From Nitrospirota bacterium (GTDB taxonomy: Bacteria > Nitrospinota_A > UBA7883 > JAJRTC01): a stretch of 34,915 nucleotides of DNA. Location: the NCBI GenBank assembly GCA_024278445.1, contig JAJRTC010000254.1, forward strand, positions 1-34,915, given 5' to 3'. Positions within the stretch are counted from its first letter, which is position 1, and every line of letters starts with the position of its first letter. Below the pieces are notes generated by a model. It was not told where the DNA came from. It saw only the letters and a list, made by a program, of their open reading frames with translations, and did no database searches. Positions 1 through 23,622 of this stretch are shown here, piece after piece. A program made the position numbers and the translations under genes.

Positions 1-45
1 AGGAATATTACCGCCTGACGATTCAGCAATTTTCTCTGGTGTCAT
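1..45 (-). CDS. 5' start of the next gene of the EPS operon (runs off the window; MTPEKIAESSGGNIP...)
   Basis: ATG at 45-43 overlaps the TGA stop of the phosphatase (ATGA coupling) and the frame is open to the window edge; only 15 codons are visible. Confidence 0.4.
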   Translation of the reverse strand, partial: MTPEKIAESSGGNIP

Positions 46-770
46 AATCTCTTAACCCCATGGATCAAATCTCCCGGTGCCTTCGTAACCATTTCACGCG
101 CCGCAGTTTCACCAACGATGTCGGACGCTACTTTCATACCACTTCTCAGGTTTGGATATCTTTCTGTCAGGTTGTGGCAGTCACTGGCCAAAAAGGTGAC
201 CTGATTAGTTTTGAGCAGATCGCAGGCGGCCTTAAAAACGGTGGCCCCAAAATCGCCCATCAGGCTTCCACAATTTATTTGTAACAAACAACCTGATTCG
301 ATATAGGGTTTGATTTTGCTTATATCGTTTTGTATTTCATAATTACGTTCAGGGTGGGCCAGAATGGGCTGAATGTTTTTTGAAACGAGCCGGCTCACCA
401 GTTGGTCACCACCAAAAGGCAGGTTAAAGGGTGGCAAGTCCATAAGAAAAGCCTTTCGTCCCTCCCAACTGCCGATCCAGGGCATATCATCATATTCCAC
501 AAACTTTAAAATAGCGTGGCTTATCATAACCTCTGCGGACAAATGAAGCCGTATGGCTATCCCTGCGTCATCAACCGCCTTTTGTAGCAGAGAGAAGGCG
601 GCTTTAGCACCATTTACAGATTCTTCATAATGGCCCTCACTTAGGTGGGGTGTGAGAACCTGGTCGGTAACACCATCGGCTACTACCAGATGAAGAAGTT
701 TTAGCGCCTCGAACATATCTTTTGCGCCGTCATCTACGGCAGGCAATATGTGGCTATGAATGTCTATCAT
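42..770 (-). CDS. CpsB/CapC-family PHP tyrosine-protein phosphatase (capsule/EPS regulation)
   Basis: MIDIHSHILP..DDG, TPH, AHPERN and ASDCH motifs; lies directly downstream of wzc. Confidence 0.93.
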   Translation of the reverse strand: MIDIHSHILPAVDDGAKDMFEALKLLHLVVADGVTDQVLTPHLSEGHYEESVNGAKAAFSLLQKAVDDAGIAIRLHLSAEVMISHAILKFVEYDDMPWIGSWEGRKAFLMDLPPFNLPFGGDQLVSRLVSKNIQPILAHPERNYEIQNDISKIKPYIESGCLLQINCGSLMGDFGATVFKAACDLLKTNQVTFLASDCHNLTERYPNLRSGMKVASDIVGETAAREMVTKAPGDLIHGVKRL

Positions 771-821: not shown

Positions 822-3107
822 TTAAGCCTCGGCGCTGTTTCCAGCTTTGACCCCGGTAGCATAATACTTCCCGTAATAGTAGTCGCCATAGCCGTTCATA
901 GACTTGGTGTTGGCATGCGACAAAACAACACCAAGCGGCTTGATATGTGAATTGTGCAATCGTTTAAGAGTGCCCTGCGCTACGTTGTGCTTGCACCAGT
1001 CTACCCTGACCACCATTATTAACGCATCAACTAACTGCCCTAAAACCAGGACATCGCTAAAAAGAAAAACCGGCGGAGTATCGATAATCACATACTCAAA
1101 CCGTGCTTTAAGGTCATCAAGCGCATGTTTAAATTTTTTTGAAGAGACAAATTCGAGCGGGTTTGGAGGTATTGTACCACAGGTGATAAAGCTTAAATTC
1201 CTTTTATGATGTTTTCGTATCACCTGTTCCGCCGTCGCCTGCCCGGACACAAACTGTGTGATGCCTCTTTTCTCATCAAGCCCCATTGTTTTCGCTACGC
1301 TCGGATTACGCAAATCCGCTTCCAGCAAAAGAGTTGGGCCAAGCTGGCTGAACGACATCGCCAACTCACAACTTAAAGTGGTTTTACCTTCATTTGGCAC
1401 AGAGGAAGTGACCAGTAATGTTTTAGGGGGAGCGTCAATATTTGAAAAAAGCATACTTGTGCGAATATTGTTTATAGCTTCAATAAACATCTGCCCGGAC
1501 ATGGAAACAGAGCCGTCGCCAGCCAGAGTTTTCTTAAGGTCTTTATTGCCGATTAATGGCGCCATCCCAAGCACGGGTAGGGCAAGCTTTCTCTCGATAT
1601 CATCATGCCCTTTAAAAGTATTGTCCAGCCGCTCCTTCAATAAGGCTAAAAAGAAACCAAGCAGAAGCCCGCCAAAAAGAGAGGCGATAATAATCAGTTT
1701 CTTTTTCGGTTTAAATGGCTTCGTTGGGCGTTTGGCACTATCGACAATCTGAATGTTAGTGACCTTACTATCCTCGGTCATGTTGGTTTCTTTAAAGCGG
1801 GTGAGAAACATTTCGTAAAGATTGCGGTTTGCTTCCACATCCCGCTCCATCTTCGCAAGCTGAAATCCCTTCCCCTTTAACTGCCTTATTTCTGTTTCCT
1901 GTTTTTCATATATACTTCTCAGTTTCCGTTCATTTTCAGCCGCCACTTCATATTCTCTTCTTATACCTTCTACAACCTTGCCAACTTCCGATTGCAAACG
2001 CTTTATCGCTTCATTAAGGTCGGACTTGGCGGCAATCATCTTTGGATGTTTGTCACCATAGCGTTCAGACAACTCTGCCACATGCCTGCCAAGCTTTGAT
2101 TCTTCCTCTTTGAGTTTTTGTACAAGCAGGTTTTGTAATACCGAGCGGAGAGAATCTACCCCTTTTTTATTTCGTTGGGCAACCAGCAACTGGTTGTAAC
2201 GGCTCTCAGCTTCGGCCAGGTAGATTTGAGCCCCAACAAGTTCCTGAGTGATTTTGGAAAGCTTGCCCCTTATAATTTCCTGGCTGTTTTTCGTATCAAC
2301 AACCCCTTCCTTCGTCTGAAACTCAAGCAGGGCGTTTTCAGAGTCAACCAGTTTCTGGCGCAGATCGGCAAGCCTGTCCGTCAGCCAGGAAGTGGCCTGT
2401 TTTACAACAAAAAGTTTTGAATCAAGATTTCTTTCTACATAAGCCGTCACCACGGCATTGGCTATATCAGCCGCCAACTGCGCCGTTGGAGCCTCGTAAC
2501 TTACAAGCACAATCTGGCTTTTTTCCTCCCCGCCAATAGACAGATGCGTTTGAAAATAGGTGGTAAGCTCTTCCTGATACTCATCCGCTGTCAAAACAGG
2601 CTTATTACCGGAAAAAACACCTCCGGCAAAATCAACGTTTTGCCATTCAGCCGGAAGCCACTTTACAAGTTTGTCAAAACTGAATTTGCTGTTTTCATAG
2701 TCGGCAATAAAATCAGGGTTTTTATCAAGCGCAAGCTTTTTAATCACCGCTTCCGTAACCGACCTGCTACCGATAATTTCGTATTGCGTTTCATAGAAAA
2801 ACATGATGTTAGAAGCCGCTTGTAAAGGGTCTAACGAAACAATTTTCGGCGCATCGGGTTCAACCAGCAGTTTAACCTCGGCTTTATAAACAGGACTTGC
2901 GGAAAAAGCGGTGAGCCCGCCAATAAGGCCCGCCAGAATTGTTAAAGCGAGAATAGACCAGATGTGGTTTTTTGTTATTTTCCAATATTCGGCAAGGTCG
3001 AACTCATCGTTATCCGCGCCACTAAACGTTGAATTGTGAGGCGAAGCATGCATACCCATTACATCATGTTGAACTTGGTTAGTTCCCGTATTTTTATTTT
3101 GTATCAT
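822..3107 (-). CDS. wzc: Polysaccharide co-polymerase/tyrosine autokinase (Wzc/GumC family)
   Basis: Two TM segments flanking a coiled-coil periplasmic region; Walker A SSVPNEGKTT, A' EADLRNP and B IIDTPP; C-terminal Tyr cluster YGDYYYGKYY. Confidence 0.95.
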   Translation of the reverse strand: MIQNKNTGTNQVQHDVMGMHASPHNSTFSGADNDEFDLAEYWKITKNHIWSILALTILAGLIGGLTAFSASPVYKAEVKLLVEPDAPKIVSLDPLQAASNIMFFYETQYEIIGSRSVTEAVIKKLALDKNPDFIADYENSKFSFDKLVKWLPAEWQNVDFAGGVFSGNKPVLTADEYQEELTTYFQTHLSIGGEEKSQIVLVSYEAPTAQLAADIANAVVTAYVERNLDSKLFVVKQATSWLTDRLADLRQKLVDSENALLEFQTKEGVVDTKNSQEIIRGKLSKITQELVGAQIYLAEAESRYNQLLVAQRNKKGVDSLRSVLQNLLVQKLKEEESKLGRHVAELSERYGDKHPKMIAAKSDLNEAIKRLQSEVGKVVEGIRREYEVAAENERKLRSIYEKQETEIRQLKGKGFQLAKMERDVEANRNLYEMFLTRFKETNMTEDSKVTNIQIVDSAKRPTKPFKPKKKLIIIASLFGGLLLGFFLALLKERLDNTFKGHDDIERKLALPVLGMAPLIGNKDLKKTLAGDGSVSMSGQMFIEAINNIRTSMLFSNIDAPPKTLLVTSSVPNEGKTTLSCELAMSFSQLGPTLLLEADLRNPSVAKTMGLDEKRGITQFVSGQATAEQVIRKHHKRNLSFITCGTIPPNPLEFVSSKKFKHALDDLKARFEYVIIDTPPVFLFSDVLVLGQLVDALIMVVRVDWCKHNVAQGTLKRLHNSHIKPLGVVLSHANTKSMNGYGDYYYGKYYATGVKAGNSAEA

Positions 3108-3117
3108 GAAACTTTTA

Positions 3118-3678
3118 CTAGAAGAGACTCTCGCCTACAAACATCACGTCGCCAGGCAGAACCGGATCTTCCAACTTTACTTTATCAGTGGCGTCACCCG
3201 CACCCTCATGCGCCAGGGTTATCTTTTTTTCAGAAGCCCTGGGAGTGAACCCGCCAGCCAAAGCTATCGCCTTTTGAACCGTAAGGCCATGCACGAAGTT
3301 GAACCCTCCAGGTTTTCTCACCTCGCCGTAAACATAAAACAGACGATATTCAAGAATAGAAACAACTACCTCAGGTTTTTTAAGATAACCATCCAGTAAA
3401 AACCCGGCCAGGCGCTGTTCCAGTTTTTTTGAAGTAAGCCCATTGGCGCTAACCTCCCCCAGCAATGGAAAGGAAATAGTACCATTACTGGCAACGCGCA
3501 CCTTCTCAAGGCTTAGCTCTTCTTCACCAAAAACGGTTATGGATAACAAATCCCCGCTTCCTATCAGGTATTCGTTAGAGCCATCATCGGCCATAGAAAC
3601 AGGTGGGGAAAACAGCACAAGCGCAAACAACAAGAACAAAAATCTCTGTTTTCGCACCAAGGAACTAAAAATGCTCAT
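3118..3678 (-). CDS. wza: Polysaccharide export protein (short Wza/OPX: Poly_export + SLBB domains)
   Basis: YLIGSGDLLSITVFGEEELS, GTISFPLLGEV, VYGEVRKPG and AIALAGGFT motifs. ATG at 3678 is preferred over the track start at 3753, which overlaps the upstream gene. Confidence 0.9.
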   Translation of the reverse strand: MSIFSSLVRKQRFLFLLFALVLFSPPVSMADDGSNEYLIGSGDLLSITVFGEEELSLEKVRVASNGTISFPLLGEVSANGLTSKKLEQRLAGFLLDGYLKKPEVVVSILEYRLFYVYGEVRKPGGFNFVHGLTVQKAIALAGGFTPRASEKKITLAHEGAGDATDKVKLEDPVLPGDVMFVGESLF

Positions 3679-3736
3679 AGATTTAACCGCAATGGCCTCA
3701 CCCTCGACAAACAGGTGAACAGGGGCACCGGCAGGT

Positions 3737-4930
3737 TTAATCCTTGTTAACAAGAGTTACTTTTAATAAGAACGTATTTGCGACATAGTCCAACCCGGCG
3801 GCAGTTGAATCGCGACTATTATATTGATATTTGGCACCTAGTCTCAGCCACTCCCGCAGACGATATTCAAGTTCCAGGCTGGTATTGAAGTAGTCCTCCG
3901 TCTGATCGATACCGCCATAATCGACCTTATGAATGGCGGCATCGGCATATGAGATGAATTGGTCGGTAAACGAGTGTTTCCAATAAAGCGAAACGGTATC
4001 TCTAACATAATAGCTAGGATTAACCGCCACAGATTCATCGTAAGGAACCTCGTCTGTTCTTCTCGACGCTTCCAGAGTTATATGGCTATACGGTTTTGGT
4101 TCCCAAAGAACGGATACAAAGTAGCTTCCACCCTCGAAATCTTCAAGATACTCTTCATCCATGTCCTTCGTGTGATAGCCGACTTTAATTTCACCAGTGG
4201 TTTTGGCGGTCGCTTCCCACCTTACACCCGCGAGAGAAAATGTCTCGGTACTATCGAGGTTTATGGATGCGTCGTTAACATAGTCAACGGTTACATAGGT
4301 TCCTTCAAGCAATAAGGAAGTTTTAGAGCTTAGGTTGTAGTACAAGGTAATTGTTCCGCCGGCTCTCTCACGGTCGCGTTCGTCTTGCCCGTTGTTGGTA
4401 TATTTACGATCAAGAAAACTGCCGGAAACCTCAATTTGCGCAGTGCTGGTCCGGCGGCCATAGGTAACTTTTGCCTCAGCCGATCCCTGCTCCCAGGTAT
4501 CCAACTCACGCGGGGTACCTCCCCTGGAACCTGCGACACCACGATTTTCGTGCGACCACATATAACCTGCATCCAGAGTTACATCGAGCCTGCGTGTTAG
4601 ATCCAGCAAGAGTTCCGCATCCAGACGGTTATCGTTATAGTCCTCAGTGCTGTATGTATCGAATGAGGTAAACTCCCCAATGTAAGTAAAATCAAGGCTA
4701 TGTTTCCCAAACAGTGCCTTATAGAGGAGGGACGGGGCAATTACGAGAGCGTCGTCGCTGGTTTCATTCCCATCAGACATAAAGACGTTGTCTGTGTTTG
4801 CATACCCAACAGAAAGCGCAGGATAAAAGCCTGGGTCAAGCTCTTCTTCCGCAGTAGCATTAGAGTAAGAAAAACAAAGAATAACAGCCAGGAGAGGCAG
4901 GAGAGAACGCAATTTAACTCTATTATTCAT
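3737..4930 (-). CDS. EPS-associated outer-membrane beta-barrel protein (VpsM/EpsL/BBP2-like)
   Basis: Signal peptide, alternating beta-strand pattern rich in Y/D/T/S, TDNVF N-terminal motif, and position between the priming transferase and wza. Confidence 0.82.
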   Translation of the reverse strand: MNNRVKLRSLLPLLAVILCFSYSNATAEEELDPGFYPALSVGYANTDNVFMSDGNETSDDALVIAPSLLYKALFGKHSLDFTYIGEFTSFDTYSTEDYNDNRLDAELLLDLTRRLDVTLDAGYMWSHENRGVAGSRGGTPRELDTWEQGSAEAKVTYGRRTSTAQIEVSGSFLDRKYTNNGQDERDRERAGGTITLYYNLSSKTSLLLEGTYVTVDYVNDASINLDSTETFSLAGVRWEATAKTTGEIKVGYHTKDMDEEYLEDFEGGSYFVSVLWEPKPYSHITLEASRRTDEVPYDESVAVNPSYYVRDTVSLYWKHSFTDQFISYADAAIHKVDYGGIDQTEDYFNTSLELEYRLREWLRLGAKYQYNSRDSTAAGLDYVANTFLLKVTLVNKD

Positions 4931-5105: not shown

Positions 5106-5534
5106 TCAGGATGGGCTCAGGTCACCACCACCACCGTTACCGCCATCAGGTACGCTGGACGGAACGGTTCTGCCGATAGCAAAGCCGGCGGCTGTCGCTT
5201 CCGTAATAAGAGCAGGGTCGGCTCCCGCTAAAATGGCACATCTGACGGCCACTTCTTCTTCTGCTCCTTTTTCCAGAGCGGCAACAACGATTGGAACCGC
5301 GTTGTCAGGATACATTTCTATAGCCGTTCTGATTATCTCACAGGTTTTTTCCGGAGCCAGATAGCTGGCCTCAGCGGCGACCTCTTCTATGGTTTTGCCT
5401 TCTGCCATGCCATTTTCTAGAACGGTTTTGACAGGAAGCTTAGCCTCCAGGTCTTCCTTGATACCGGCAAACGCAGGGGTAGAAACCCACGCCACCAACA
5501 AAAACAGTGATAATACAATTACTTTGTTTTTCAT
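5106..5534 (-). CDS. Secreted helical protein with a LapA-like DP-x4-EATAAG motif and a Gly-rich C-terminus
   Basis: Sec signal ending AFA|G; RBS GGAG upstream; tail AILAGADPALITEATAAG...GGNGGGGDLSPS. Confidence 0.85.
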   Translation of the reverse strand: MKNKVIVLSLFLLVAWVSTPAFAGIKEDLEAKLPVKTVLENGMAEGKTIEEVAAEASYLAPEKTCEIIRTAIEMYPDNAVPIVVAALEKGAEEEVAVRCAILAGADPALITEATAAGFAIGRTVPSSVPDGGNGGGGDLSPS

Positions 5535-5647
5535 TTTCTCCCTTTTACCTCCAACAGCATGAACGACACTATATGTATTCTCAATCAGACTAACTGTTAA
5601 TACCTTAAATTACAATTTTATTATCATAAACAGAGAAAATGCTTTTC

Positions 5648-7105
5648 TCAATATGCCTTTTTAGAAACCAGAGTGTATGTTGTCTTAAAAAGTATTTTAA
5701 GATCCAGCATGATTGACCAGTTGTTTATGTAGTCCAGGTCATACTGAATACGCTCCTGCATTTTGTCTATAGTCTCAGTCTCGCCACGGCATCCGTTAAC
5801 CTGCGCCAAGCCGGTCATTCCTGGTTTTATCCTGTGCCTCGCAAAATATGAACTTATTTTTTGTGAATAATAATTGTCATGCGCAACGGCATGCGGACGC
5901 GGGCCGACAAGAGACATTTTTCCTTCCAGCACGTTAAACAACTGAGGCAGTTCGTCAATACTGGTAGACCTTATGAAGCGGCCCACCGCAGTCACCCTGG
6001 GGTCGCCAGCCACAGCTTGAGTTGTTACGTTCGAGTTTTCTTTATGAAGACGCATACTCCTGAACTTGTAAACTTCAAACACAGACCCGTTCCAGCCCTG
6101 ACGTTTCTGTTTGAACATAACAGGCCCGGGAGATGAAAGTTTAACGGCGATGACCGTTGCAAGCATTATCGGGCTGAAAACAAGAATCGCCACACTGGCC
6201 AACACCCTGTCCAGAACTGATTTGGCAAATTGGGACGCACCAATAAGAGGAGTTTCCGAAAGTGCCAATACGGGCACGCCGGCGATTTCTTTTATATTGT
6301 GATTAACCAGTATCATGCCAAAAAGGTCTGGTGCCCAATTCACATTAACGTTTTTACTGAGAAGCTCAAGATAGAGCGTTTCAATTTTGGCAGACGCGCT
6401 GATAGGCATGGCTATATACACAGTTTCTATATCGAACTTTTCAAGCAGAGCGCCGATATCGGCAACCGACCCCAGCACGGGCGCGTTATCAACGTCCCAA
6501 CCGGACAAAGCCTGCTCGTCATCATCCACGACACCGACGATTTGAATAGGCAACCACGGGTTGCTGTTTATGCTACCGGCAAGAAACCTGCCTAAATTAC
6601 CGGCCCCCACAAGCAATGCAGGGGTTGTGTTCTTCTGGGAAGATCGAAAGTTTTTTAGTAAAAGCGGAAAAATAATGTGAGCCGCCAGTTGTAAAAGAAA
6701 ACATGACACGGCCCATGTAAGAATTATTTGCCGTGAATAGATCGTCGATGTCTTGGTGATAAAACCTATAAGTACAAGGCCGATGACAACGGCACCCCAA
6801 GCTTTAACGAGCTTGACAAAAACACCATAATTATCGGTATACCTTCTGTAAAGTCCTAAGCTGTTGTAAACGATCCACATCAATAACAGCGTGGCCACCA
6901 GCAGGATGCGGTAGTGGAAGTCAAACTCGTTGCCCCTTGCAAGCGTAAGAACGTAAAGCAAGCCGGACGCGATAAAGGCGTCTATCAATAGCTGAAACCA
7001 AAACAGTAAAGTGCTATGCTTCTGCAAAATGCTATGGCTACGGGAATAGGAAGGCGAATCGCCACGGGTGGCACGCCCCTGATTTAATTTGGTATTACCC
7101 AGCAC
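5648..7105 (-). CDS. wcaJ: Undecaprenyl-phosphate glucose phosphotransferase (WcaJ-family priming glycosyltransferase)
   Basis: N-terminal TM helices, CoA-binding-like LVGAG region, and KFRSM, SIDELPQLFNVLEGKMSLVGPRPHA, KPGMTGLAQVNG and DLDYI motifs; GTG start with GAGGGAG upstream. Confidence 0.93.
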   Translation of the reverse strand: MLGNTKLNQGRATRGDSPSYSRSHSILQKHSTLLFWFQLLIDAFIASGLLYVLTLARGNEFDFHYRILLVATLLLMWIVYNSLGLYRRYTDNYGVFVKLVKAWGAVVIGLVLIGFITKTSTIYSRQIILTWAVSCFLLQLAAHIIFPLLLKNFRSSQKNTTPALLVGAGNLGRFLAGSINSNPWLPIQIVGVVDDDEQALSGWDVDNAPVLGSVADIGALLEKFDIETVYIAMPISASAKIETLYLELLSKNVNVNWAPDLFGMILVNHNIKEIAGVPVLALSETPLIGASQFAKSVLDRVLASVAILVFSPIMLATVIAVKLSSPGPVMFKQKRQGWNGSVFEVYKFRSMRLHKENSNVTTQAVAGDPRVTAVGRFIRSTSIDELPQLFNVLEGKMSLVGPRPHAVAHDNYYSQKISSYFARHRIKPGMTGLAQVNGCRGETETIDKMQERIQYDLDYINNWSIMLDLKILFKTTYTLVSKKAY

Positions 7106-7176
7106 TGCTACTTCTCCCTCTCAACATTTGGTATTACAAAAGAGAACCGAACAACCTGACCCGAGAGCAAAACTCC

Positions 7177-7197
7177 TTGAACACCTTTCATGTTCAA
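7177..7197. promoter_or_regulatory. Perfect inverted repeat upstream of wcaJ (candidate operator)
   Basis: TTGAACA-N7-TGTTCAA. Confidence 0.4.
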
Positions 7198-7252
7198 AGC
7201 AGACAGTGTGCATGCTAATAACTCCCATCATTTTATAGGCAAAACTTGAATA

Positions 7253-7269
7253 TGTCAATTTACCTTACA
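7253..7269 (-). promoter_or_regulatory. Candidate bEBP (PrsR-type) enhancer facing the EPS operon
   Basis: TGT-N11-ACA; the minus strand reads TGTAAGGTAAATTGACA, which resembles the site at 7696. Confidence 0.55.
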
Positions 7270-7695
7270 TTTCTTGACAAGTAGATCGTGACGAGTTCAT
7301 AAAATAACTAACTGATATTACACAGCTTGATCGCCCTACGCTCTTCTTGCATGCCATATCAAGCCTATATTATAGACACCAAAACGAGACAAATTACACG
7401 AATCTACCACAAACAAAACATTGAACAAATCTCAAGTCTGGATTCAATGCAAATTTCATGCGAAAACAAGCTTTTTCTACTATAAGCAGAAACTTTTAAG
7501 CTCTAAAACAACATTAACAAACTGTTACATTAAAAAACGCCTCCGTCATGTACCGCAGTACAGCGCAAAATGGAAGCCCGGTTCGATATATTTCATTGTT
7601 TTAACAGTATATTCTTGATCCTCGTAGCCACCTGTGACAAGCTAAATAATTGAAAGAAAAGGAGTTTTTTCCACAAGTAAAAAAAATAAATTTGC

Positions 7696-7712
7696 TGTAA
7701 AGTTTTCTGACA
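7696..7712 (+). promoter_or_regulatory. Candidate bEBP (PrsR-type) enhancer for the PEP-CTERM gene
   Basis: TGTAAAGTTTTCTGACA (TGT-N11-ACA). The CTGTAAAGTTTT part is repeated at 7794-7805; the site lies about 175 bp upstream of a sigma54 motif. Confidence 0.7.
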
Positions 7713-7885
7713 GTGCAATTCAAGCCCTCGAACCCATTAAGACCATAAAATTCAAATGATTAGACAATTACGGACAAGAATGTCCTAAATCTACTGTAAA
7801 GTTTTTTTATGGCTCGGCTGAAAATGTTTTTTTGCTATATCCCTTTGCAGGTTAAATATCAATAAGTTAGCCTGAAATTATGCGA

Positions 7886-7901
7886 TGGCACGGAATATGC
7901 T
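7886..7901 (+). promoter_or_regulatory. Sigma54 (-24/-12) promoter
   Basis: TGGCACGGAATATGCT with exact GG-N10-GC spacing, upstream of a PEP-CTERM gene. Confidence 0.8.
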
Positions 7902-8024
7902 TAGTAAGTTAGCAGGAGAGAATATGAATTTGCGTATGTGCACTAGCAGTTACGCAACACAGACGGATAGATAAAGCATCATGATTTCAAATATTGGAAA
8001 CACTCTAGATAGTAAGGGGAGAAA

Positions 8025-8798
8025 ATGAAAAAGACAGCTTTTACGGTATGTTTGGCGCTTGTGGTGTCCAGTGTTCTATTTATCACCAGCCTAACAGAAG
8101 CCGCCACCATGAATCTTACGGGAACCATACGCGATTTCAGTACAACCCACCCTGATTTTGAAGGAACAGTTGGCGCTGAAACAGGGATAGTCAAAAATAC
8201 GATCGGCCTTGACGGCAAGCCTGTCTATAATAAGCTTGCTGACGGTAGCGACAGCCTCACAACCACCGGCACGGCAAACTTTAACCAGTGGTATAACGAC
8301 GTACTCGGAGTTAACACAAGCCAGCTTCTGACCATAACCTTGGATAACACTATCACCGCCGACCCTAACGTTTACACCTATGAGAACAACTCATTCTTCC
8401 CGATAGACGGCGCAATGGGTGGTAACGAGGGCAACCCGCATAACTACCATTTCACTTATGAGATCAACAGCGATTTCACCTATCAGGGTGGTGAAACTTT
8501 CAGTTTCGCAGGTGATGACGATCTCTGGGTATTTATCAACGGTCAACTGGCAATAGATTTAGGCGGAGTTCACGGGGTGATGGGTGATAGCGTTAATCTT
8601 GATACTTTAGGACTTACTACGGGGAATGACTACACCTTCGCCCTCTTTTTTGCAGAGCGCCACACGACAGAGTCTAACTTCAGAATTGATACCTCAATCA
8701 AACTGAACAATAAGGTTCCTGAGCCTGCGACACTTCTTCTGTTGGGTTCCGGCCTTCTTGGTTTTGGTCTCTTCCGCAGAAACTCTGAAGAGAGCTAA
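8025..8798 (+). CDS. Fibro-slime (PA14-like) domain protein with a PEP-CTERM exosortase sorting signal
   Basis: Signal peptide; RDF..HPDFE, FFPID, GDDDLWVFING, DLGGVH and FFAERH..ESNFRIDT motifs; C-terminus VPEP-TM helix-RR. Confidence 0.95.
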   Translation: MKKTAFTVCLALVVSSVLFITSLTEAATMNLTGTIRDFSTTHPDFEGTVGAETGIVKNTIGLDGKPVYNKLADGSDSLTTTGTANFNQWYNDVLGVNTSQLLTITLDNTITADPNVYTYENNSFFPIDGAMGGNEGNPHNYHFTYEINSDFTYQGGETFSFAGDDDLWVFINGQLAIDLGGVHGVMGDSVNLDTLGLTTGNDYTFALFFAERHTTESNFRIDTSIKLNNKVPEPATLLLLGSGLLGFGLFRRNSEES

Positions 8799-8823
8799 AA
8801 AACTTTTAATAATCAGTTCAAGC

Positions 8824-8863
8824 AAAACGCCTGCAGGCTTTAAACTGCAGGCGTTTTTTGTTT
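8824..8863 (+). terminator. Rho-independent terminator
   Basis: AAAACGCCTGCAG-N8-CTGCAGGCGTTTT followed by further Ts. Confidence 0.85.
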
Positions 8864-8985
8864 GCAACGCTGATAGAAGCCTGCGTTAATATCGTGCTTC
8901 TCTTTACCACGTTGTTACTACCCCGCCCCGCACAAGGTTTTATTGCCAAAGATAGCCGTAAGGCTTCCGATAAATTGATATAATC

Positions 8986-9732
8986 ATGGTAAGTGTTTTT
9001 GCACACCAGAACCTTAAGAAGGAGCGGCCCGATATTTTGCTCTCATTTGACAATCTTAAAACGCTTCCTCCCGCCAACAGGTTTTTTAAGGCCACGGCTC
9101 TCACCATGCTTATTTTTACTGCCATCGCAATAGCCGACAATGCCGGCCTTAGCCAAAAGCTTCTTGATTATGTGGCCGATAAATACGGCTCACGCGCAAT
9201 GGACAGATTGCTGGATTGGGAAGAACTTATAAAAAATAACAAGGATAAAAACAACTCGGAAAAACTCAAACTGGTGAACGAGTTTTTTAACCGGCTCAGG
9301 TTTATAAGCGACAAACGTCATTGGAAGAAAGATGATTACTGGGCGACACCGGTAGAAATGCTGGCGACAAACGGCGGTGATTGCGAAGATTTCTCAATAG
9401 CCAAATATTTTACTCTCAAACAGATGGGCCTTCCCGTTAAAAACATGCTGATAACTTATGTAAAATCGTTAACACTTAATCAGGCCCACATGGTTCTCAC
9501 CTATTACAAAACAGAGGACTCAGAACCGCTTGTGCTTGATAACCTGATAGACGAAATACGACCAGCTTCCGAGCGCAAAGACCTCGTTCCCGTATATAGC
9601 TTCAACGGTGACGGGCTGTGGTTATCGAAAGAGCGTGGCAGGGGCACGTTTATAGGCGACTCAAGCAGTATAAACTTATGGCAAGACTTAGGCATCCGAA
9701 TGGAAAAAGAAAAACCGTTTGAAAATAACTGA
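8986..9732 (+). CDS. lapG: LapG-like periplasmic transglutaminase-like cysteine proteinase (BTLCP, peptidase C93)
   Basis: VNEFFN, DYWATPVE, GDCEDFSIAKYFTL, QAHMVLTYY, LVLDNL and DLVPVYSFN motifs (Cys-His-Asp triad); the true start may be downstream of 8986. Confidence 0.9.
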   Translation: MVSVFAHQNLKKERPDILLSFDNLKTLPPANRFFKATALTMLIFTAIAIADNAGLSQKLLDYVADKYGSRAMDRLLDWEELIKNNKDKNNSEKLKLVNEFFNRLRFISDKRHWKKDDYWATPVEMLATNGGDCEDFSIAKYFTLKQMGLPVKNMLITYVKSLTLNQAHMVLTYYKTEDSEPLVLDNLIDEIRPASERKDLVPVYSFNGDGLWLSKERGRGTFIGDSSSINLWQDLGIRMEKEKPFENN

Positions 9733-9772
9733 TCTAGTTGTTACTGGTCTACATGTAGGGAAAGGTTAATCA

Positions 9773-10150
9773 TTGCAAATAAGGGAACGAGACCTCTATC
9801 TGGCCTTCTCATCGCTTCTGTTGCTGATGTATTTTTTTTCAGGTCATCACAGCGCAATGGGAAACTGATTTTTTGAACATGTGGCAGTTGTCCGGGAACT
9901 GGCAACCCATCCGTTTTTCCCAAGCCACCCGACACTAAGCTTAAACGCCCCACACGCCTTTTATTTACTCTATGCACTTTGTATAGCAACGGTTTCAACA
10001 ATATTGAACAGTGGCCCAATAGCTACACTGGCTTTGGCCGGTCTTTTCAACTTGCTATTCTTGCTAACAAGCCGATGGATATTTGTAAAATCGTACTTCA
10101 AAAATAAATTCACGGCATTTTACATGCTATTGTTCACACTGTTTTTATTT
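9773..10150 (+). pseudogene. Frameshifted and truncated membrane-protein gene
   Basis: Hydrophobic coding segments continue across frame changes at T-runs (~9832-9839 and ~9869-9874): ..AFSSLLLLMYFF / QVITAQWETDF / EHVAVVRELATHPFFPSHPTLSLNAPHAFY..; ends at the IS3 fragment. Confidence 0.45.
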
Positions 10151-10151
10151 A

Positions 10152-10419
10152 CGACCAGGAAGGCCGACTGACAACGCCTTTATCGAGTCATTCAACGGAA
10201 GTTTTCGAGATGAATGCTTAAACGCCAACTGGTTTTTGTCATTGGAAGATGCCCGTCGTAAGATCGAAACATGGCAAAAAGATTATAATGAGTTTCGGCC
10301 ACATTCAGCATTGGGCCATAAAACGCCAAAGGAATTTATGCTGGCTGCCAGAGAAGAGCAGTCAGCCATTGAAGCCAGAAAAGTCGCATAATGCCGGATC
10401 AAGAAATGGGAAGGGCTCA
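10152..10419 (+). mobile_element. IS3-family remnant (3' end of orfB integrase plus right end)
   Basis: 10152-10391 reads RPGRPTDNAFIESFNGSFRDECLNANWFLSLEDARRKIETWQKDYNEFRPHSALGHKTPKEF; it is followed by an IR-like end ...GAAATGGGAAGGGCTCA. Confidence 0.9.
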
Positions 10420-10546
10420 GTACTAAAAGAGGGAAGTTTACAACCTTCAACAGTCTCAGATTCATTTTCCCAGCGCCCCTGCCAACCAACTCCACAAAAG
10501 CCATACAAAAGTAGTAGGATAAAACCATGCGGGAGGAACGGGTCAT

Positions 10547-10568
10547 GCAACCTAATGTTGCGCAACAT
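10547..10568. promoter_or_regulatory. Overlapping palindromes, candidate upstream activator site
   Basis: GCAAC-N5-GTTGC (10547-10561) and the perfect palindrome ATGTTGCGCAACAT (10555-10568), about 125 bp upstream of a sigma54 motif. Confidence 0.4.
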
Positions 10569-10690
10569 GCGGTTCCACGAAACAACAAGTGAAACACTCG
10601 GGGGGCTTCAGTTGGAACATGCCGCTTGCACTGAATTGTATCTAGCTGTTTTTATTGCCTGCTAAAAAATAAAGGCACTAAGCTGAAATT

Positions 10691-10706
10691 TGGCACAAGC
10701 AATGCA
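10691..10706 (+). promoter_or_regulatory. Sigma54 (-24/-12) promoter
   Basis: TGGCACAAGCAATGCA with GG-N10-GC spacing. Confidence 0.75.
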
Positions 10707-10791
10707 ACACTATCAGGCAACAGCGAACAAATGAAACAGTCACTGAAACAAATGACTTTTTGAAACAATTTACATATTCAGGAGATAAAAA

Positions 10792-11175
10792 ATGAAAAAC
10801 ATCAAAACTCTGGTTGCAACAGTCGCTCTTACGTTAACTGCCGGTATCGCTTCGGCAACAACTCTTGAAAATATCAATGCTTCTTTCGATCGTGGGTTCG
10901 GCCATGAGCAGTATAGCTTCAACCAGGTTCAGGCTTCTTTTGACCGCGCATTCGTGGATAACGAGAGAAAAGTCGATTATAACACCATCATTCTCGCATC
11001 TTTTCAGCGCGACTTGAGAATTGAGGATCACGGCGTATACGCAAAAGAAACAGGACGCAACTCTTACGAGTTAGCTCTTCTCGGATGGGAAGACGTTCTG
11101 CCTTACGGTGAGCTGAACAGTGCCCCAAGTGTCATCGTTAGCAACGACGTAGAGAACCAGAAACCGGTTATCTAA
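10792..11175 (+). CDS. Small secreted protein with three ASFxR repeats
   Basis: RBS CAGGAG, signal peptide ending ASA, repeats ASFDRGF / ASFDRAF / ASFQRDL, own promoter and terminator. Confidence 0.85.
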   Translation: MKNIKTLVATVALTLTAGIASATTLENINASFDRGFGHEQYSFNQVQASFDRAFVDNERKVDYNTIILASFQRDLRIEDHGVYAKETGRNSYELALLGWEDVLPYGELNSAPSVIVSNDVENQKPVI

Positions 11176-11193
11176 AACTTAAACAGCCTCTCC

Positions 11194-11239
11194 GCCGGGG
11201 CGGTCAACCCCTGCATATCCATGACCGCCTCGGCTTTTT
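11194..11239 (+). terminator. Rho-independent terminator
   Basis: GCCGGGGCGGTCA ... TGACCGCCTCGGC followed by TTTTT. Confidence 0.75.
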
Positions 11240-11319
11240 AATTGCGCTACCGCCAGATATGAAGCCCTCTCTGCAAATAACGCGATCGCAGATATAAAGC
11301 TCTCATCAAGGTTGAAAAA

Positions 11320-12261
11320 TCAGGTTACGATTTTTTCAAGTTCATCAAAGACAGCTTTGGGGATATTGCGATCAAACGCTTTTATATTATCTGCAACTTG
11401 CTCTGGCGTGTTGGCCCCAACAATCGCCGCCGAAACCCCTTTTTGTGATGTAACCCATCGCAAAGCCAAATGTGTTAACGGTGTTTCTATTTCTCCCGCA
11501 TAATTTTTAAGGCGTTCAACCTTTTCCAAGGCCACTGCAAGTGCTTCTTTTTGAAAAATTCCTAATTTCCCGCGTCCGCGCCAGCCTGTAAATTTTGAGT
11601 TTTTATCATATTTACCTGTGAGGAGCCCGGAAGCCAGCGGGCTGTAGGCTATAGAGCCGATCCCCTCATCTATAATATAGGGGAGTAGCGAGCTTTCGAT
11701 ATCACGCACAAGCAAACTGTATTGCGGCTGTACACATGTTATCTGTGCCATTTTTTGCGCAGTTTCTAAAAGTTTTACGTCGAAGTTGCTCACGCCAATT
11801 TCCATGATTTTGCCTTTTTCCTGCAATTTGGCCAGTGCGGTCATCGTTTCATCGATGGGTGTGTCGGGGTCGGGCCAATGTATCTGGTACAGGTCGATAT
11901 GGTCGGTTGCAAGGCGATGGAGCGAGTTTTCCAGCTCCTCGACCACCGATTTGGCCGATAGATCGTGATACATGGTCGCAAGGTTTTCTTCTTTCCATCG
12001 GAGCCCCAGTTTCGTGGCGATCAGGAGATCATCGCGCCTGTTTTTGATAGCATCACCGACGATTTCCTCAGAGCGACCGAATCCGTATATCGGTGCGGTG
12101 TCGATCATATTAACGCCAAGATCGAGCGCCGTCTGGATTGTTTTGATGGATTGGTTCCGGTCGCGCTCATCCCAGAATGGGGGGCCGCTTATTCCCCACG
12201 CTCCGTAGACGATGGGCGCCGTTTCAAGTTTTGATTTTTCAGACAGTTTTTGTTTTTTCAT
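11320..12261 (-). CDS. Aldo/keto reductase
   Basis: IDTAPIYGFGRSE, ATK, DLYQIHWPD, IGVSNF, QPQYSLL and YSPLASGLLTGK motifs. Confidence 0.95.
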   Translation of the reverse strand: MKKQKLSEKSKLETAPIVYGAWGISGPPFWDERDRNQSIKTIQTALDLGVNMIDTAPIYGFGRSEEIVGDAIKNRRDDLLIATKLGLRWKEENLATMYHDLSAKSVVEELENSLHRLATDHIDLYQIHWPDPDTPIDETMTALAKLQEKGKIMEIGVSNFDVKLLETAQKMAQITCVQPQYSLLVRDIESSLLPYIIDEGIGSIAYSPLASGLLTGKYDKNSKFTGWRGRGKLGIFQKEALAVALEKVERLKNYAGEIETPLTHLALRWVTSQKGVSAAIVGANTPEQVADNIKAFDRNIPKAVFDELEKIVT

Positions 12262-12324
12262 TTTTCGATTATAAAGGAACAGCTATTTTTGACCAAACAC
12301 CTAAACTGTGTGGGGTATAAATAG

Positions 12325-12485
12325 GGTAGTGAGCCAGTTTGGTCATTCTGAGGCAAAGGCGAAGAATCTCGAATTACATCTGACGCAATAATAGGTTCGA
12401 GATGCTTCGCGGAGCCTGCCCTGAGTGAACGAATTGAATTGAATGGGCTTCAGCATGACAACAATGCGCAAACTGACTCACTACC
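12325..12485 (+). mobile_element. MITE copy 1 (161 bp) with a perfect 8-bp target-site duplication
   Basis: TIRs GGTAGTGAGCCAGTTTG / CAAACTGACTCACTACC; ATAAATAG at both 12317-12324 and 12486-12493; homologous copies at 27626 and 30088. Confidence 0.88.
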
Positions 12486-12550
12486 ATAAATAGCGCAAGG
12501 TCACGCCTGATGTATAATGTTAAATTTTTAAGATATTCAGACAAATCAAA

Positions 12551-13021
12551 ATGCTGAAACTGAGAGCCAAAGATTTTGACGTCATGAAAGAACACGCCGA
12601 GCGCGAGTTCCCCCATGAATGTTGCGGGGTAATCATCGGTGATTTTTCCGACAAAACAAAAACGGAAGTGCGCCCCTGCGCAAATATACAAAACGAGTTA
12701 AACGAAAAATATCCGGATAAATACACACGATCGGCCGACACAGGATATTTTATCGACCCGAAAGAACTTCACAAGGCTATGATGGACGCATCGAAACAGA
12801 AACTTGATATCATCGGGTTTTACCACTCACATCCAAATCATGACCCGTACTGGTCGGCTGAAGATAACCGGGCCGCCATGTGGGAAGGAACCGGTGAACC
12901 GCTATACCCGGACGCGTCACATGTTGTAATTTCGGTTTACGATGGCAAGGTTAAGGGTGCTTCTGTCTTTAAATGGGCTGAGTCTGAAAAAAAGTTTTTA
13001 CAACATAACGTAGAACTATGA
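12551..13021 (+). CDS. Mov34/MPN/JAMM (M67) metallopeptidase, Mec-like
   Basis: PHECCG plus HSHP....SAED JAMM motif. Confidence 0.9.
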   Translation: MLKLRAKDFDVMKEHAEREFPHECCGVIIGDFSDKTKTEVRPCANIQNELNEKYPDKYTRSADTGYFIDPKELHKAMMDASKQKLDIIGFYHSHPNHDPYWSAEDNRAAMWEGTGEPLYPDASHVVISVYDGKVKGASVFKWAESEKKFLQHNVEL

Positions 13022-13806
13022 CAAAAGCAAACGTGGTTGAGGTCGAAAACGTATCTTTAAGTTTCGACGGCCACAAGGTGTTAGACGACGTATCTTTCTC
13101 TATACAGGCTGGAAGTTTCACAGGATTGATCGGCCCTAACGGCGCTGGTAAAACAACAATACTCAGGGTTCTTTTAGGTTTGCTCAAGCCTGATGGTGGA
13201 AAGGTTCGCATATTTGGTCACCCGCCCGGAAAATCGCACAGTTTTATAGGCTACGTTCCACAAAGCATAACTTATGACCGCATGTTTCCCGTATCAGTTC
13301 GCGAGGTCGTAATGATGGGTCGGTTTGGGACCATCGGTTTGGGGCGTGGGCCTAAAGAAAAAGATCATGCGGCGGTTAACGAAGCGTTATCGGTTGTTGG
13401 TGCGCAAAGTTTTGCAGATAAGCGTTTCGGCAAGCTTTCGGGCGGGGAGCGGCAAAGGGCGCTTATAGCCCGCGCACTTTGCGTTAAACCGCATCTTCTT
13501 CTGTTAGATGAGCCTACGACAGGTGTGGATGTGGTGTCGCAGGACACATTTTACAAGATGTTAAAAGGGCTTGTGAAAAACATGAGAATGACGATCATGC
13601 TGGTAAGCCACGACCTGGGCGTTATAACAAAAATGGTGGACGACCTTATATGCATCAACCAGAAAGTTTTTGTTCACGGTTCGCCTAAAGATGTTTTGTC
13701 CGATGGTGTTATAGGGCAGGCATACGGGTGCGAAGCGGAGATTTTAATGCACGATCATTCCACGCCGCATCGTGTTGTGCGGCCGCATGACCATGAGGCA
13801 AAATAA
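13018..13806 (+). CDS. znuC: Zn/Mn ABC transporter ATP-binding protein
   Basis: GPNGAGKTT, GYVPQ, LSGGERQR, LLLDEPT and VSHD motifs; His-rich C-tail. Confidence 0.9.
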   Translation: MTKANVVEVENVSLSFDGHKVLDDVSFSIQAGSFTGLIGPNGAGKTTILRVLLGLLKPDGGKVRIFGHPPGKSHSFIGYVPQSITYDRMFPVSVREVVMMGRFGTIGLGRGPKEKDHAAVNEALSVVGAQSFADKRFGKLSGGERQRALIARALCVKPHLLLLDEPTTGVDVVSQDTFYKMLKGLVKNMRMTIMLVSHDLGVITKMVDDLICINQKVFVHGSPKDVLSDGVIGQAYGCEAEILMHDHSTPHRVVRPHDHEAK

Positions 13807-17937: not shown

Positions 17938-19056
17938 ATGAAAAAAGCGTATCTTGTTATGTCTGACGGGCGCGTGTTCACCGGCAAGCCGTTGGGCGCA
18001 GTTGGCGAGACATCTGGCGAAGTCGTGTTCAACACTTCCATGATGGGATATCAGGAGATCCTCACAGACCCTTCATACGAAGGGCAGATTATCACCATGA
18101 CCTATCCGCTCATAGGCAATTATGGTGTGAACGACGAGGACGTCGAGTCGTGCGATATTTTCGCCGCAGGTTTTATAGTTAAAGAAGAGAGCGCCATAGC
18201 ATCAAACTGGCGCAAAACAAAAACGCTGGGCGACTATTTGCGCGAGCATGACGTTGTTGGCATACAGGGGATAGACACGAGAGCGTTGACCCGTCACATA
18301 CGCGAAAAAGGTGCGTTACCTGCGATTATAATTTCTTTGCCCGATGCCGATATAGATGAGCTAAAAGCACGCGTAACAAAAGTTGCGGGAACAGACGGCA
18401 TTGACCTTGTGTCGAAAGTCACATGCGATGGGGCATATAGCTGGGACGACGGACTGTGGGATATTGAGCAAGGGTTTACCAAACCTGATAGTGAATCAAA
18501 ATATAAAGTTGTGGCGATTGATTATGGCGTGAAGCGAAATATCCTGCGCCATCTTGTAAACGCCGGGTGTGATCTTACTGTTGTTCCGGCAAGCATGACG
18601 GCTGACGAGATATTAAAAAAGCAACCGGACGGAATTTTCCTCTCCAACGGGCCTGGTGATCCATCGGCTGTTCCATACGCCGCAGAAACCGTAAAAGAGT
18701 TGATAGGCAAAAAACCTTTGTTCGGAATCTGTTTCGGGCATCAGACGTTGTGCCGTGCGCTTGGCATGGATACTTATAAATTAAAGTTCGGGCATCATGG
18801 CGGCAACCAGCCGGTTATGGATCTTTTAACCCGCAAGGTAGAGATAACCGCGCAGAACCATAACTACGCGGTGGACGACAAGTCCCTGCCGGACGGCGTA
18901 GAAGTTACGCACATAAATTTGAACGATAAAACCGTTGAAGGCATAAAGTCTGACAAGTTAAAAGTGTTTTCGGTGCAATACCATCCGGAAGCCTCCCCCG
19001 GCCCCAACGATGCGCAATATTTGTTCAAACGGTTTACCGATTTGATGGAGGGATGA
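17938..19056 (+). CDS. carA: Carbamoyl-phosphate synthase small subunit
   Basis: [22 protein letters not shown] and [10 protein letters not shown] motifs. Confidence 0.98.
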
Positions 19057-19079: not shown

Positions 19080-19505
19080 ATGACCGATATAAACCTAACA
19101 CAAACTGAAGCTGATACTTTAATTTCAATGCCAAAATTGCGTGTTAATGATGATACTTGGGATTATCCAAACTCTGGCGGGTCTTTATGTGTGCCGCTTG
19201 TGTCACAGGACAATAGAGAGGAGTTCAACCTTGATATTTATAGAGGGCGTATTAATTTGCTTAAAGGTACGCACCAGAGTAGGGCAAGGCAAGTTATTGT
19301 GCTAGTGCGGTTAGATTTTGGAGGTTCTCCTCACCGTAATCCAAATGATGAAGAAATAGGAAGCCCACATTTGCATATTTATCGTGAGGGATATGGTCAT
19401 AAATGGGCTATCCCCGTTCCTGAAGATAAATTCCCCAATATTTCTGATTTATATGCAACGTTATTAAGCCACCTAAAATTTTTAGGGGCCTTTTCTCATG
19501 ATTGA
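19080..19505 (+). CDS. DUF6978-like protein, probably with a frameshifted C-terminus
   Basis: [36 protein letters not shown] resembles DUF6978. An alternative-frame tail [15 protein letters not shown] (19454-19501) has its stop overlapping the next ATG. Confidence 0.75.
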
Positions 19506-20265
19506 TGAAATACAAAAATTACTAGATCAATATGTTTTATGGCTTAAGGATAAGACATTGCTACGGGAGATGCCTGACAATTGGGTGGAGATTACGACCC
19601 CTTACCTTGATCGACATAATGACTATCTCCAGATATACACCAAGAAGCAAAATAGAACATTTGTGCTTACTGACGATGGCTACATTATGGATGATCTTTT
19701 GCAAGCTGGGTGCAAACTAGATACTCCAAAGCGTAAAGATTTGCTGAAAATGACTTTAGCAGGGTTTGGTATCGATAATAATAACGGGGCTTTAGAAGTT
19801 CGTGCTTCTGCTGAAAGTTTCGCATTGCGTAAACATAATTTAATTCAGGCTATGCTAGCAGTTAATGACTTGTTTTATCTGGCACAGCCAATGGTTGCTA
19901 GTCTTTTTTATGAAGATATAGTTCAGTGGCTTGATCAAAATGATATTCGTTATACACAAAATGTGAAGTTTGCTGGCAAGAGTGGTTACGATCATTTATT
20001 TGATTTTGTTATTACCAAATATCAGCAACATCCTGAGCGCATCATTAAAGCAATTACTAACCCAAGTAGGAATACAGCAGAAGCCCTTGCATTTAAGTGG
20101 ATTGACACTAGAGATGTAAGGCCATCGGACTCACGAGCATATGCACTGCTTAATGACAAGGAACAAAGAGTGCCTTCAAGTGTATTTGATGCTATAAAAA
20201 ACTACGGTATTACACCTGTGTTGTGGAGTAGCCGCGAAAATGTTAAAGCAGAGTTAGCTGCCTAA
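19498..20265 (+). CDS. DUF1828 + DUF1829 domain protein
   Basis: [38 protein letters not shown] and [13 protein letters not shown] motifs; AT-richer than the flanking car genes. Confidence 0.85.
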
Positions 20266-23300: not shown

Positions 23301-23516
23301 GCCGATGGCGATATTGTTATGGTTATCAATACGACCTTCGGCAAAAAGTCTATTCAGGATTCTTACACTATAAGAAGAACGGCGCTTACGATGAACGTGC
23401 CATACCAGACCACCGTCGAAGGTGCCTTGGCGTCGGTTACGGCGATAGAGGCACTTGTTAAAGGCGGAATGGATATCATGGCGTTGCAGGAATATTTTAC
23501 GATGGTAAAGTCGTAG
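20310..23516 (+). CDS. carB: Carbamoyl-phosphate synthase large subunit
   Basis: [30 protein letters not shown], duplicated ATP-grasp domains and C-terminal MGS domain. Confidence 0.99.
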
Positions 23517-23622
23517 GTTAATCAAAACGCCGTATGGATGTTTGTGCAAATAGAACTTGCATCGATCGCTCTTATAATGGGTGTTATTGGCCTTAATCCT
23601 GGTGAAAGGTTGTACCGGTAAA

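Follow-up and report, generated by a model that had tools for sequence, protein, structure and literature searches.

A small, putatively secreted protein with a LapA-type TAAG element, encoded in an exopolysaccharide export operon, is a candidate substrate of LapG

The window analysed here, a stretch of 34,915 nucleotides (nt) from a Nitrospirota bacterium (contig JAJRTC010000254.1, assembly GCA_024278445.1), encodes a putatively secreted protein of 142 amino acids (aa) within an operon for exopolysaccharide (EPS) export, and a gene for a LapG-like protease lies close by. The small protein carries a LapA-type LapG site, and it belongs to a real and widespread family that is genomically tied to lapG and lapD and to an exporter composed of an OPX protein (OPX standing for polysaccharide export in the outer membrane) and a beta-barrel. 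Very probably it is also functionally tied to LapG. By analogy, we consider it moderately probable that it serves, as a periplasmic accessory cleaved by LapG, a class-3 OPX/beta-barrel exporter under the control of LapD and cyclic di-GMP (c-di-GMP). A link to LapG had been proposed in a preliminary description of the sequence, and every computational check that we ran favours it. That description was also correct in every particular as to the length of the protein, the position of its TAAG, the place of its gene between wcaJ and a beta-barrel gene and the vicinity of lapG, which it put at about 3.5 kb and which amounts to 3452 nt from start to start. The features concerned are the following.

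5106 to 5534, minus strand: gene of the small secreted protein, an open reading frame (ORF) of 142 aa, unnamed helical-repeat family
5184 to 5258, minus strand: LapA-type LapG recognition helix with TAAG (predicted), residues 93-117, EEVAVRCAILAGADPALITEATAAG
5109 to 5183, minus strand: Gly/Pro-rich low-complexity tail, residues 118-142, ends GGNGGGGDLSPS
8986 to 9732, plus strand: LapG-like periplasmic cysteine protease of the bacterial transglutaminase-like cysteine proteinase (BTLCP)/Peptidase_C93 type, PF06035 62.6 bits (cutoff 27)

A ribosome-binding site of the GGAGG type precedes the ORF. By inspection, the N-terminus (residues 1-23, MKNKVIVLSLFLLVAWVSTPAFA followed by G) resembles a Sec signal peptide with a basic n-region, a hydrophobic core and the sequence AFA in front of that glycine, and a signal-like N-terminus is seen throughout the family (alignment A1). 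Judged from these sequence features, the protein may be periplasmic and exposed to LapG. Its C-terminal region reads AILAGADPALITEATAAG and continues into the Gly-rich FAIGRTVPSSVPDGGNGGGGDLSPS; the very end is ...AILAGADPALITEATAAGFAIGRTVPSSVPDGGNGGGGDLSPS (SPS). TAAG occupies residues 114-117 (nt 5195-5184). LapA is cut by LapG between A108 and A109, and a change of AA to RR blocks the cut, according to the accessible part of PMC3032545; by analogy, the putative scissile bond of the small protein would be that between A115 and A116. In the AlphaFold2 (AF2) model, which has a mean predicted local distance difference test (pLDDT) value of 84, the ten-residue blocks over residues 31-110 reach 96-98 and those of the tail 54-60. 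Residues 25-121 are predicted to form a helical domain and residues 122-142 to be disordered. A Foldseek search of the PDB with this model returned nothing at E<=0.001, the top rows being designed helical repeats and tetratricopeptide repeat proteins, and Pfam gave zero matches for the protein, repeats-in-toxin (RTX) motifs included.

A six-frame scan of the 2.41-Mb genome found the pattern DP-x3-7-E-x-[TP]AAG once, in the small protein, and bare [TP]AAG 60 times. The NCBIfam model NF033682 (retention_LapA) matches residues 96-137 with 22.1 bits and E 1.3e-4 (22.9 bits in the genome search), which is below its curated cutoff of 50 bits and covers profile positions 91-121 of 145 only. Profile-profile comparison, from which kinship with the retention modules had been expected, bears it out: hhalign of A1 against an alignment of retention modules (A4) pairs residues 93-117 with module positions 101-125 at 96.8% probability and E 2.2e-10 over 25 columns only, a generous figure because A1 (45 of the 69 family sequences, selected partly for motif presence) and A4 (19 modules, selected by the exact motif) are both motif-enriched. 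When the exact pattern AGADP-x5-ATAAG was back-translated and searched in one genome per species, at least 120 loci were found. Most of those listed are giant Pseudomonas-type adhesins that read LQQAIAAGADPTxxxEATAAGP at about residues 100-140, so the small protein has the canonical element nearly letter for letter. A frame-shifted version of the pattern, used as a control, found 51 loci with 0 in-frame matches. The TAAG of the small protein also falls under the definition of a LapG site as [T/A/P]AA[G/V] within residues 70-150, given in the accessible part of Collins et al. (bioRxiv 10.1101/2020.05.11.089839). With 142 aa and a signal-peptide-like N-terminus, the protein lies outside the criteria for adhesins, i.e. 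more than 1000 aa, RTX motifs and export by a type I secretion system (T1SS).

An exhaustive HMMER search retrieved 68 family representatives at E<1e-3, with lengths of 114-493 aa. They share a signal-like N-terminus, AxEIVxAAxxAGxDPxxV-type helical repeats and a low-complexity tail of 20-45 residues with the consensus GGGxx(A/V)SP(S/N) at the very end. Ser140 is nearly invariant (at least 90% in A1), and A115, A116 and G117 are each conserved at 90% or more in the same alignment. Across 69 sequences the aligned site reads x-A-A-G in 40 cases (TAAG 33, AAAG 4, SAAG 2, PAAG 1). A cysteine-rich subgroup lacks the motif and keeps the GGG..SP end. No Pfam or NCBIfam model covers the family, the Atlas returned unnamed clusters only (best score 0.91), and a locus search with the single protein P0026 found no relative. 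The longest representative, P0003 (493 aa), is a tandem of four complete modules, each terminated by TAAG (positions 128, 247, 366 and 486), with just RSHR beyond the last of these; by its sequence it looks like a polyprotein that could be cleaved into four units.

The LapG-like gene scores 232.2 bits against NF045674, under the equivalog cutoff of 320, and its product matches the PDB entries of LapG, 4fgo and 4u65, at E 1e-51 to 6e-52 (4fgo 5.9e-52). Cys133, His168 and Asp185 as well as the DCED stretch (D132, C133, E134, D135) are invariant in a ten-sequence alignment (A3). This is the sole LapG match in the genome. The only LapD is encoded on another contig (C7:9299-10672), where it is preceded by unrelated genes; it matches PF16448 (LapD_MoxY_N) with 155-158 bits and comprises GGDEF and the start of EAL before it is truncated by the contig end. 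A lapD remnant downstream of the lapG of the window was looked for, and none is present. Since lapD lies directly behind lapG in all relatives that have it, the two genes are apparently separated in this genome, unless the assembly (2.41 Mb, 87% complete, 269 contigs) is at fault.

The distribution of the family was compared with that of LapG in two samples, in which G000 denotes the window's own genome and other G-numbers the genomes compared. Sample 1 comprises 61 genomes around the window, from its own order. Seven carry the family (G000, G001, G003, G005, G009, G012, G014), seven LapG (G000, G001, G003, G005, G009, G014, G016) and six LapD (G000, G001, G003, G005, G014, G016). Family and LapG occur together in six genomes, each alone in one and neither in 53. 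As the barrel gene of G016 starts at contig base 3, the small gene of this genome may simply be cut off. Sample 2 consists of 151 genomes of the gammaproteobacterial order around G064, filtered at 90% completeness; a genome counted as a carrier if an open frame no longer than 260 aa had a model match starting by position 50. LapG is present in 63 of the 151 genomes, namely in 13 of the 14 carriers and in 50 of the 137 others. The one-sided Fisher tests (p 9e-7 in sample 1, 5e-5 in sample 2) both overstate the association because related genomes are not independent. In the order around Neptuniibacter the family is found in 2 of 151 genomes.

Co-occurrence both with lapG and lapD and with wcaJ-barrel-wza-wzc loci, as had been predicted, is borne out; 6 of 7 and 13 of 14 carriers possess LapG. 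Homologues are not common in genomes without lapG, which would have spoken against the proposal: only two of the 21 carriers in samples 1 and 2 lack it, and both have a degenerate motif. In G012 (94% complete), where neither LapG nor LapD was detected, the small orthologue has lost the site (AIGSGGDQDVVVRAALAAIW) and kept GSPS. G069, where LapG was not detected, has AAAS at the site, and its small gene is located on a contig of 1.27 kb. This comparison of motif-less members with LapG presence comprises two genomes only. All 18 LapG-positive carriers located independently of the motif, a set that excludes five genomes found through the motif pattern, have x-A-A-G (TAAG 9, AAAG 6, PAAG 1, SAAG 1, IAAG 1), and 16 of these sites fit [T/A/P]AA[G/V].

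In the window the small gene is placed between wcaJ and a set of genes for a barrel, a short Wza, Wzc and CpsB, all on the same strand.

5648 to 7105, minus strand: WcaJ-type undecaprenyl-phosphate glucose phosphotransferase, TIGR03023 489.3 bits (cutoff 410.75), Bac_transf and CoA_binding_3
3737 to 4930, minus strand: outer-membrane beta-barrel, BBP2_2, EpsL-like, PF10082 151 bits, TIGR03014 sub-threshold
3118 to 3753, minus strand: short Wza-like OPX protein, 211 aa, PF02563 78.7 bits, PF10531 48.8 bits, EpsE/EpsY sub-threshold
822 to 3107, minus strand: Wzc-like polysaccharide co-polymerase (PCP)/tyrosine autokinase, TIGR01007 154.9 bits (over cutoff), Wzz, GNVR
42 to 770, minus strand: CpsB/CapC-type phosphotyrosine phosphatase, PF19567 160.9 bits

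WcaJ is the initiating enzyme of the EPS pathway. The short OPX protein consists of Poly_export and one SLBB domain only, with the barrel gene adjoining; its length and domain content fit class 3, and the BBP2_2 barrel is its probable porin partner.

The barrel gene adjoins the small gene also in G001, G003, G005, G012, G014, G206, G118, G115, G128 and G160. In G206 and G118 the order lapG-lapD-small-barrel-wza-wzc is uninterrupted and on one strand, and in G206 it runs on into cpsB. In G064, G065, G099 and G193 lapG-lapD-small are contiguous and encode a short small protein ending in ATAAGL; in G061 and G195 contig breaks interrupt what is probably this order as well. G115, G128, G160, G152 and G098 show small(-wcaJ)-barrel-wza-wzc-cpsB with lapG elsewhere. 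In G005, lapGD and the small gene bracket a contiguous 26-kb EPS cluster that comprises an epimerase, glycosyltransferases, a UDP-glucose dehydrogenase, a flippase, two Wzy_C proteins, wzc, wza and the barrel, and a response-regulator diguanylate cyclase lies just outside it. In G001, lapGD stand back to back with an orthologue of the wcaJ of the window (60% identity).

Co-folding of LapG (residues 56-248; A3, 10 rows) with the mature small protein (A1) and one Ca, a check suggested at the outset, passed its controls: ipSAE was 0.72/0.77/0.74 compared with 0.00 in each of three controls (0.74 versus 0.00 overall), the partner had a pLDDT of 79 or more, and 42% or more of the contacts were common to the runs. 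Of the solved complexes used for calibration, 58 of 80 attained this mark, as did 2 of 110 mismatched pairs, figures that apply only roughly because our own alignments were used and Ca was included. The predicted contacts of the small protein are residues 97-98, 101-102, 104-109, 111-112 and 115, i.e. the conserved helix. On the LapG side the predicted interface is formed by invariant residues, and the contacts include A167, V203 and Y204. The models support binding of the small protein to LapG.

Several points weigh against a LapG-cleaved substrate. To the sub-cutoff, partial match to retention_LapA, the motif-based selection of A1 and A4 and the location of lapD on contig C7, apart from the lapG of the window, the following have to be added. 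Of the 69 representatives, 29 are without x-A-A-G (9 are one residue off, 20 have no or a partial match), so the motif characterises a subgroup rather than the entire family; the motif conservation that had been anticipated therefore stands for the 18 motif-independent LapG-positive carriers but not family-wide (40 of 69). The genes are unlinked in G003 and G014. In sample 1 the small gene, the barrel, LapG and LapD share one phyletic pattern, so that the association concerns lapGD and the whole small-barrel-wza-wzc module and does not single out the small protein. The variants in lapGD operons end 1-4 residues beyond TAAG. TAAG lies inside the last helix (residues 107-121) of the AF2 model, and cleavage would need unwinding. 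Finally, A167, V203 and Y204 of LapG correspond, via alignment to 4u65 chain E, to A169, V205 and Y206 of Pseudomonas fluorescens on the LapD-binding face; owing to this overlap, the co-fold may echo the solved LapD-LapG complex or mean competition with LapD.

Some of these points would suit a protein that has no tie to LapG and is a structural or chaperone-like component of the OPX/beta-barrel machinery, the shared 25 residues being due to descent or convergence and lapGD co-travelling with the EPS genes. In all EPS-type loci examined the small gene and the barrel are syntenic, and in the window's order their phyletic patterns coincide, the 20 relatives in which the motif is absent keep the GGG..SP end, and lapG is found elsewhere in the genome in G003, G014, G115, G128, G160 and the Neptuniibacter genomes. 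We regard this explanation as quite unlikely, as lapG-lapD-small are contiguous even without EPS genes behind them (G064, G065, G099, G193), precisely those two carriers in which LapG was not detected have lost the motif, and the co-fold passes its controls with the predicted interface on the conserved helix.

The other points raise the question of whether the small protein binds LapG without being consumed, as a pseudosubstrate or decoy, as a competitor of LapD, or as an adaptor that brings LapG to the exporter, another protein being the actual target there. The short members encoded right after lapD end in ATAAGL or ATAAGKAKK, and cleavage would take off 3-6 residues only; as cutting costs these variants almost nothing, they are easier to reconcile with a decoy or binder than with a tether. 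The predicted helical state of TAAG and the overlap of the predicted interface with the LapG residues that cross-link to LapD point in the same direction. We consider this reading possible but rather doubtful, since the di-alanine is the best-conserved element and decays where LapG was not found, and a pure binder would have no obvious use for it. The EPS-operon forms, moreover, have a conserved tail of 20-45 residues beyond the site, so that cleavage would have an effect. A conserved site is absent from the other proteins of the operon. The TAAG of the barrel (residue 376, DSTAAGLDY) was rejected as a LapG site, as three orthologues read STYPDIDY, SSFPDINY and STFPGIDY at this position; its occurrence is probably due to chance.

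One may also ask whether LapG serves a giant LapA-like adhesin that escaped assembly, the small protein being an incidental look-alike. Repeat-rich adhesins often fail to assemble, the genome of the window is fragmented, and canonical adhesins are present besides the small family in some carriers (Neptuniibacter G062/G063, G152, G193, G098, G099). Nevertheless, we deem this explanation very improbable. No retention_LapA module over the cutoff was found in any of the 61 genomes of sample 1, including the lapGD-bearing G005 (100% complete), G003 (99%) and G014 (95%, 6 contigs). Among the ten gammaproteobacterial carriers two have such a module and eight do not, and altogether 14 of the 16 LapG-positive carriers tested are without a canonical module. 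Where an adhesin is present, this is compatible with a second substrate.

The N-terminal half of the retention_LapA model is a source of false leads: whether or not LapG is present, what it matches in 34 of 61 genomes are FecR-like proteins. A match on contig C98 of the window's genome was rejected as an adhesin for this reason, being a FecR-like secreted protein of 347 aa in a cluster (8510-13040) with a beta-barrel and a CHASE2-adenylate/guanylate cyclase.

Returning to the small protein as a LapG-cleaved accessory, it is reasonable to propose the following scheme. The exporter would be of the Wzx/Wzy type, with a short class-3-like OPX protein and a beta-barrel porin, and the small protein would be its LapG target. 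After export by Sec and removal of the signal peptide, the compact helical-repeat domain is predicted to fold in the periplasm, and the last helix, AIxAGADPx5ATAAG, which is shared with LapA-type modules, is predicted to dock on LapG. At low c-di-GMP, LapD would free LapG, which by analogy with LapA would cut between the alanines and detach the Gly-rich tail, whose SP(S/N) end is conserved, from the helical domain. The intact protein may be needed for polysaccharide export or cell-surface retention, in which case cleavage would switch this off; this direction is suggested by the logic of c-di-GMP signalling and by analogy with HvyA of Caulobacter. In genomes without a giant adhesin, the small family would represent the main substrate of otherwise orphan LapDG pairs.

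An extension of this scheme, which we regard as unlikely, would make the small protein a miniature counterpart of LapA, with the polysaccharide or else the export channel as its cargo. The helical domain would be retained in the periplasm and the Gly-rich tail would thread into the OPX/beta-barrel conduit, where the serine of SP(S/N) might be a covalent attachment point for the polymer or bind in the channel as a plug. Wzy_C domains include ligase-type enzymes, and the two Wzy_C-domain proteins in the G005 cluster therefore bear on the idea of polymer attachment. Polysaccharide bound to the cell would be set free by cleavage at TAAG, or a channel that has no other gate would be opened or closed by it. 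If this is true, c-di-GMP would control the retention or export of polysaccharide directly and post-translationally, and many orphan LapDG pairs would be accounted for, as would possibly the type of target of BTLCPs in capsule loci, such as HvyA.

Between the EPS operon and lapG the window contains one further gene.

8025 to 8798, plus strand: fibro-slime/PA14 protein with PEP-CTERM sorting signal, TIGR02148 125.9 bits, PF07589 31 bits

This gene lies directly upstream of lapG and is probably a separate transcript. A terminator-like hairpin with a 13-bp stem (8824-8857) lies between the two; save for this one strong hairpin, promoter and terminator scans of the window gave no excess over shuffled sequence. 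Further PEP-CTERM tails on contigs C82, C247, C83 and C11 make an exosortase system in the genome probable. The stretches 7106-8024, between wcaJ and the PEP-CTERM gene, and 9733-10791, downstream of lapG, have no convincing ORF or Rfam match, and Rfam found nothing in the window as a whole; an ORF of 138 aa at 10249-10665 has no family match. Farther downstream, a stretch otherwise given over to pyrimidine biosynthesis has two overlapping genes inserted between carA (17938-19056) and carB (20310-23516), one for a DUF6978 protein of 141 aa and one for a DUF1828/DUF1829 protein of 255 aa (together 19080-20265, plus strand). Between carB and genes of the pyrD region lies the gene of a second, unrelated protein with a transglutaminase core (511 aa; Transglut_core and weak DUF3108; 23581-25116, plus strand).

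To our knowledge, all known LapG substrates are large surface adhesins. A literature search, with subscription journals and supplementary files outside its range, returned no description of a small LapG substrate or of a link between the Lap system and an exporter of this kind. According to the accessible part of a census (bioRxiv 10.1101/2020.05.11.089839), 2720 organisms have LapD and LapG and no recognisable LapA, and its authors propose undiscovered substrates, citing CdrA. As that census required more than 1000 aa and RTX motifs, the small family could not be detected by it. Should LapG cut the small protein, a Wzx/Wzy polysaccharide exporter would likewise be governed post-translationally by the Lap inside-out switch, and c-di-GMP would have a new route to matrix production. 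A testable candidate would then also be available for capsule control by transglutaminase-like periplasmic proteases, a matter left open by the work on HvyA. Two distant lineages have the system, among them cultured Gammaproteobacteria whose genomes are complete (Neptuniibacter), so bench tests are feasible.

A precedent for a substrate outside the LapA type is the two-partner-secretion adhesin CdrA of Pseudomonas aeruginosa, which LapG cuts and which, going by the accessible part of PMC4694147, is a LapG substrate unrelated to LapA that acquired the site. Unlike the small protein, which is apparently periplasmic and is tied to polysaccharide export genes, CdrA is a large surface adhesin secreted via CdrB. 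HvyA of Caulobacter crescentus resembles the present LapG in being a LapG-family periplasmic cysteine protease (BTLCP) within a Wzy-type capsule locus; its catalytic activity blocks capsulation, and the accessible part of PMC4241560 reports its target as not identified. It differs in being controlled by its abundance over the cell cycle and not by LapD and c-di-GMP. In Myxococcus, short OPX proteins work with a beta-barrel porin (accessible parts of PMC9601211 and PMC12819527), and, as in the EpsY/EpsX and WzaB/WzpB translocons, the 211-aa OPX protein of the window adjoins a dedicated beta-barrel and a Wzc-type PCP; the accessible part of PMC12819527, on class-3 OPX translocons, nowhere mentions LapG, c-di-GMP, a plug or an accessory. 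With the retention modules of the LapA/MapA/FrhA type the small protein shares the 25-residue element xxIxxAIxAGADPx5ATAAG, a Gly-rich stretch beyond the site, genomic coupling to lapG and lapD, and predicted docking on LapG. The differences concern everything around this element. LapA-type adhesins have a C-terminal T1SS signal, whereas the small protein has a putative Sec signal peptide; the domain in front of the site is an alpha-helical repeat and not the beta-rich fold of retention_LapA profile positions 1-70; RTX repeats and an adhesin body are missing, with about 25 residues beyond the site; and the gene is located in a Wzx/Wzy EPS export operon, whereas the genes of LapA-type adhesins stand beside lapBCE.

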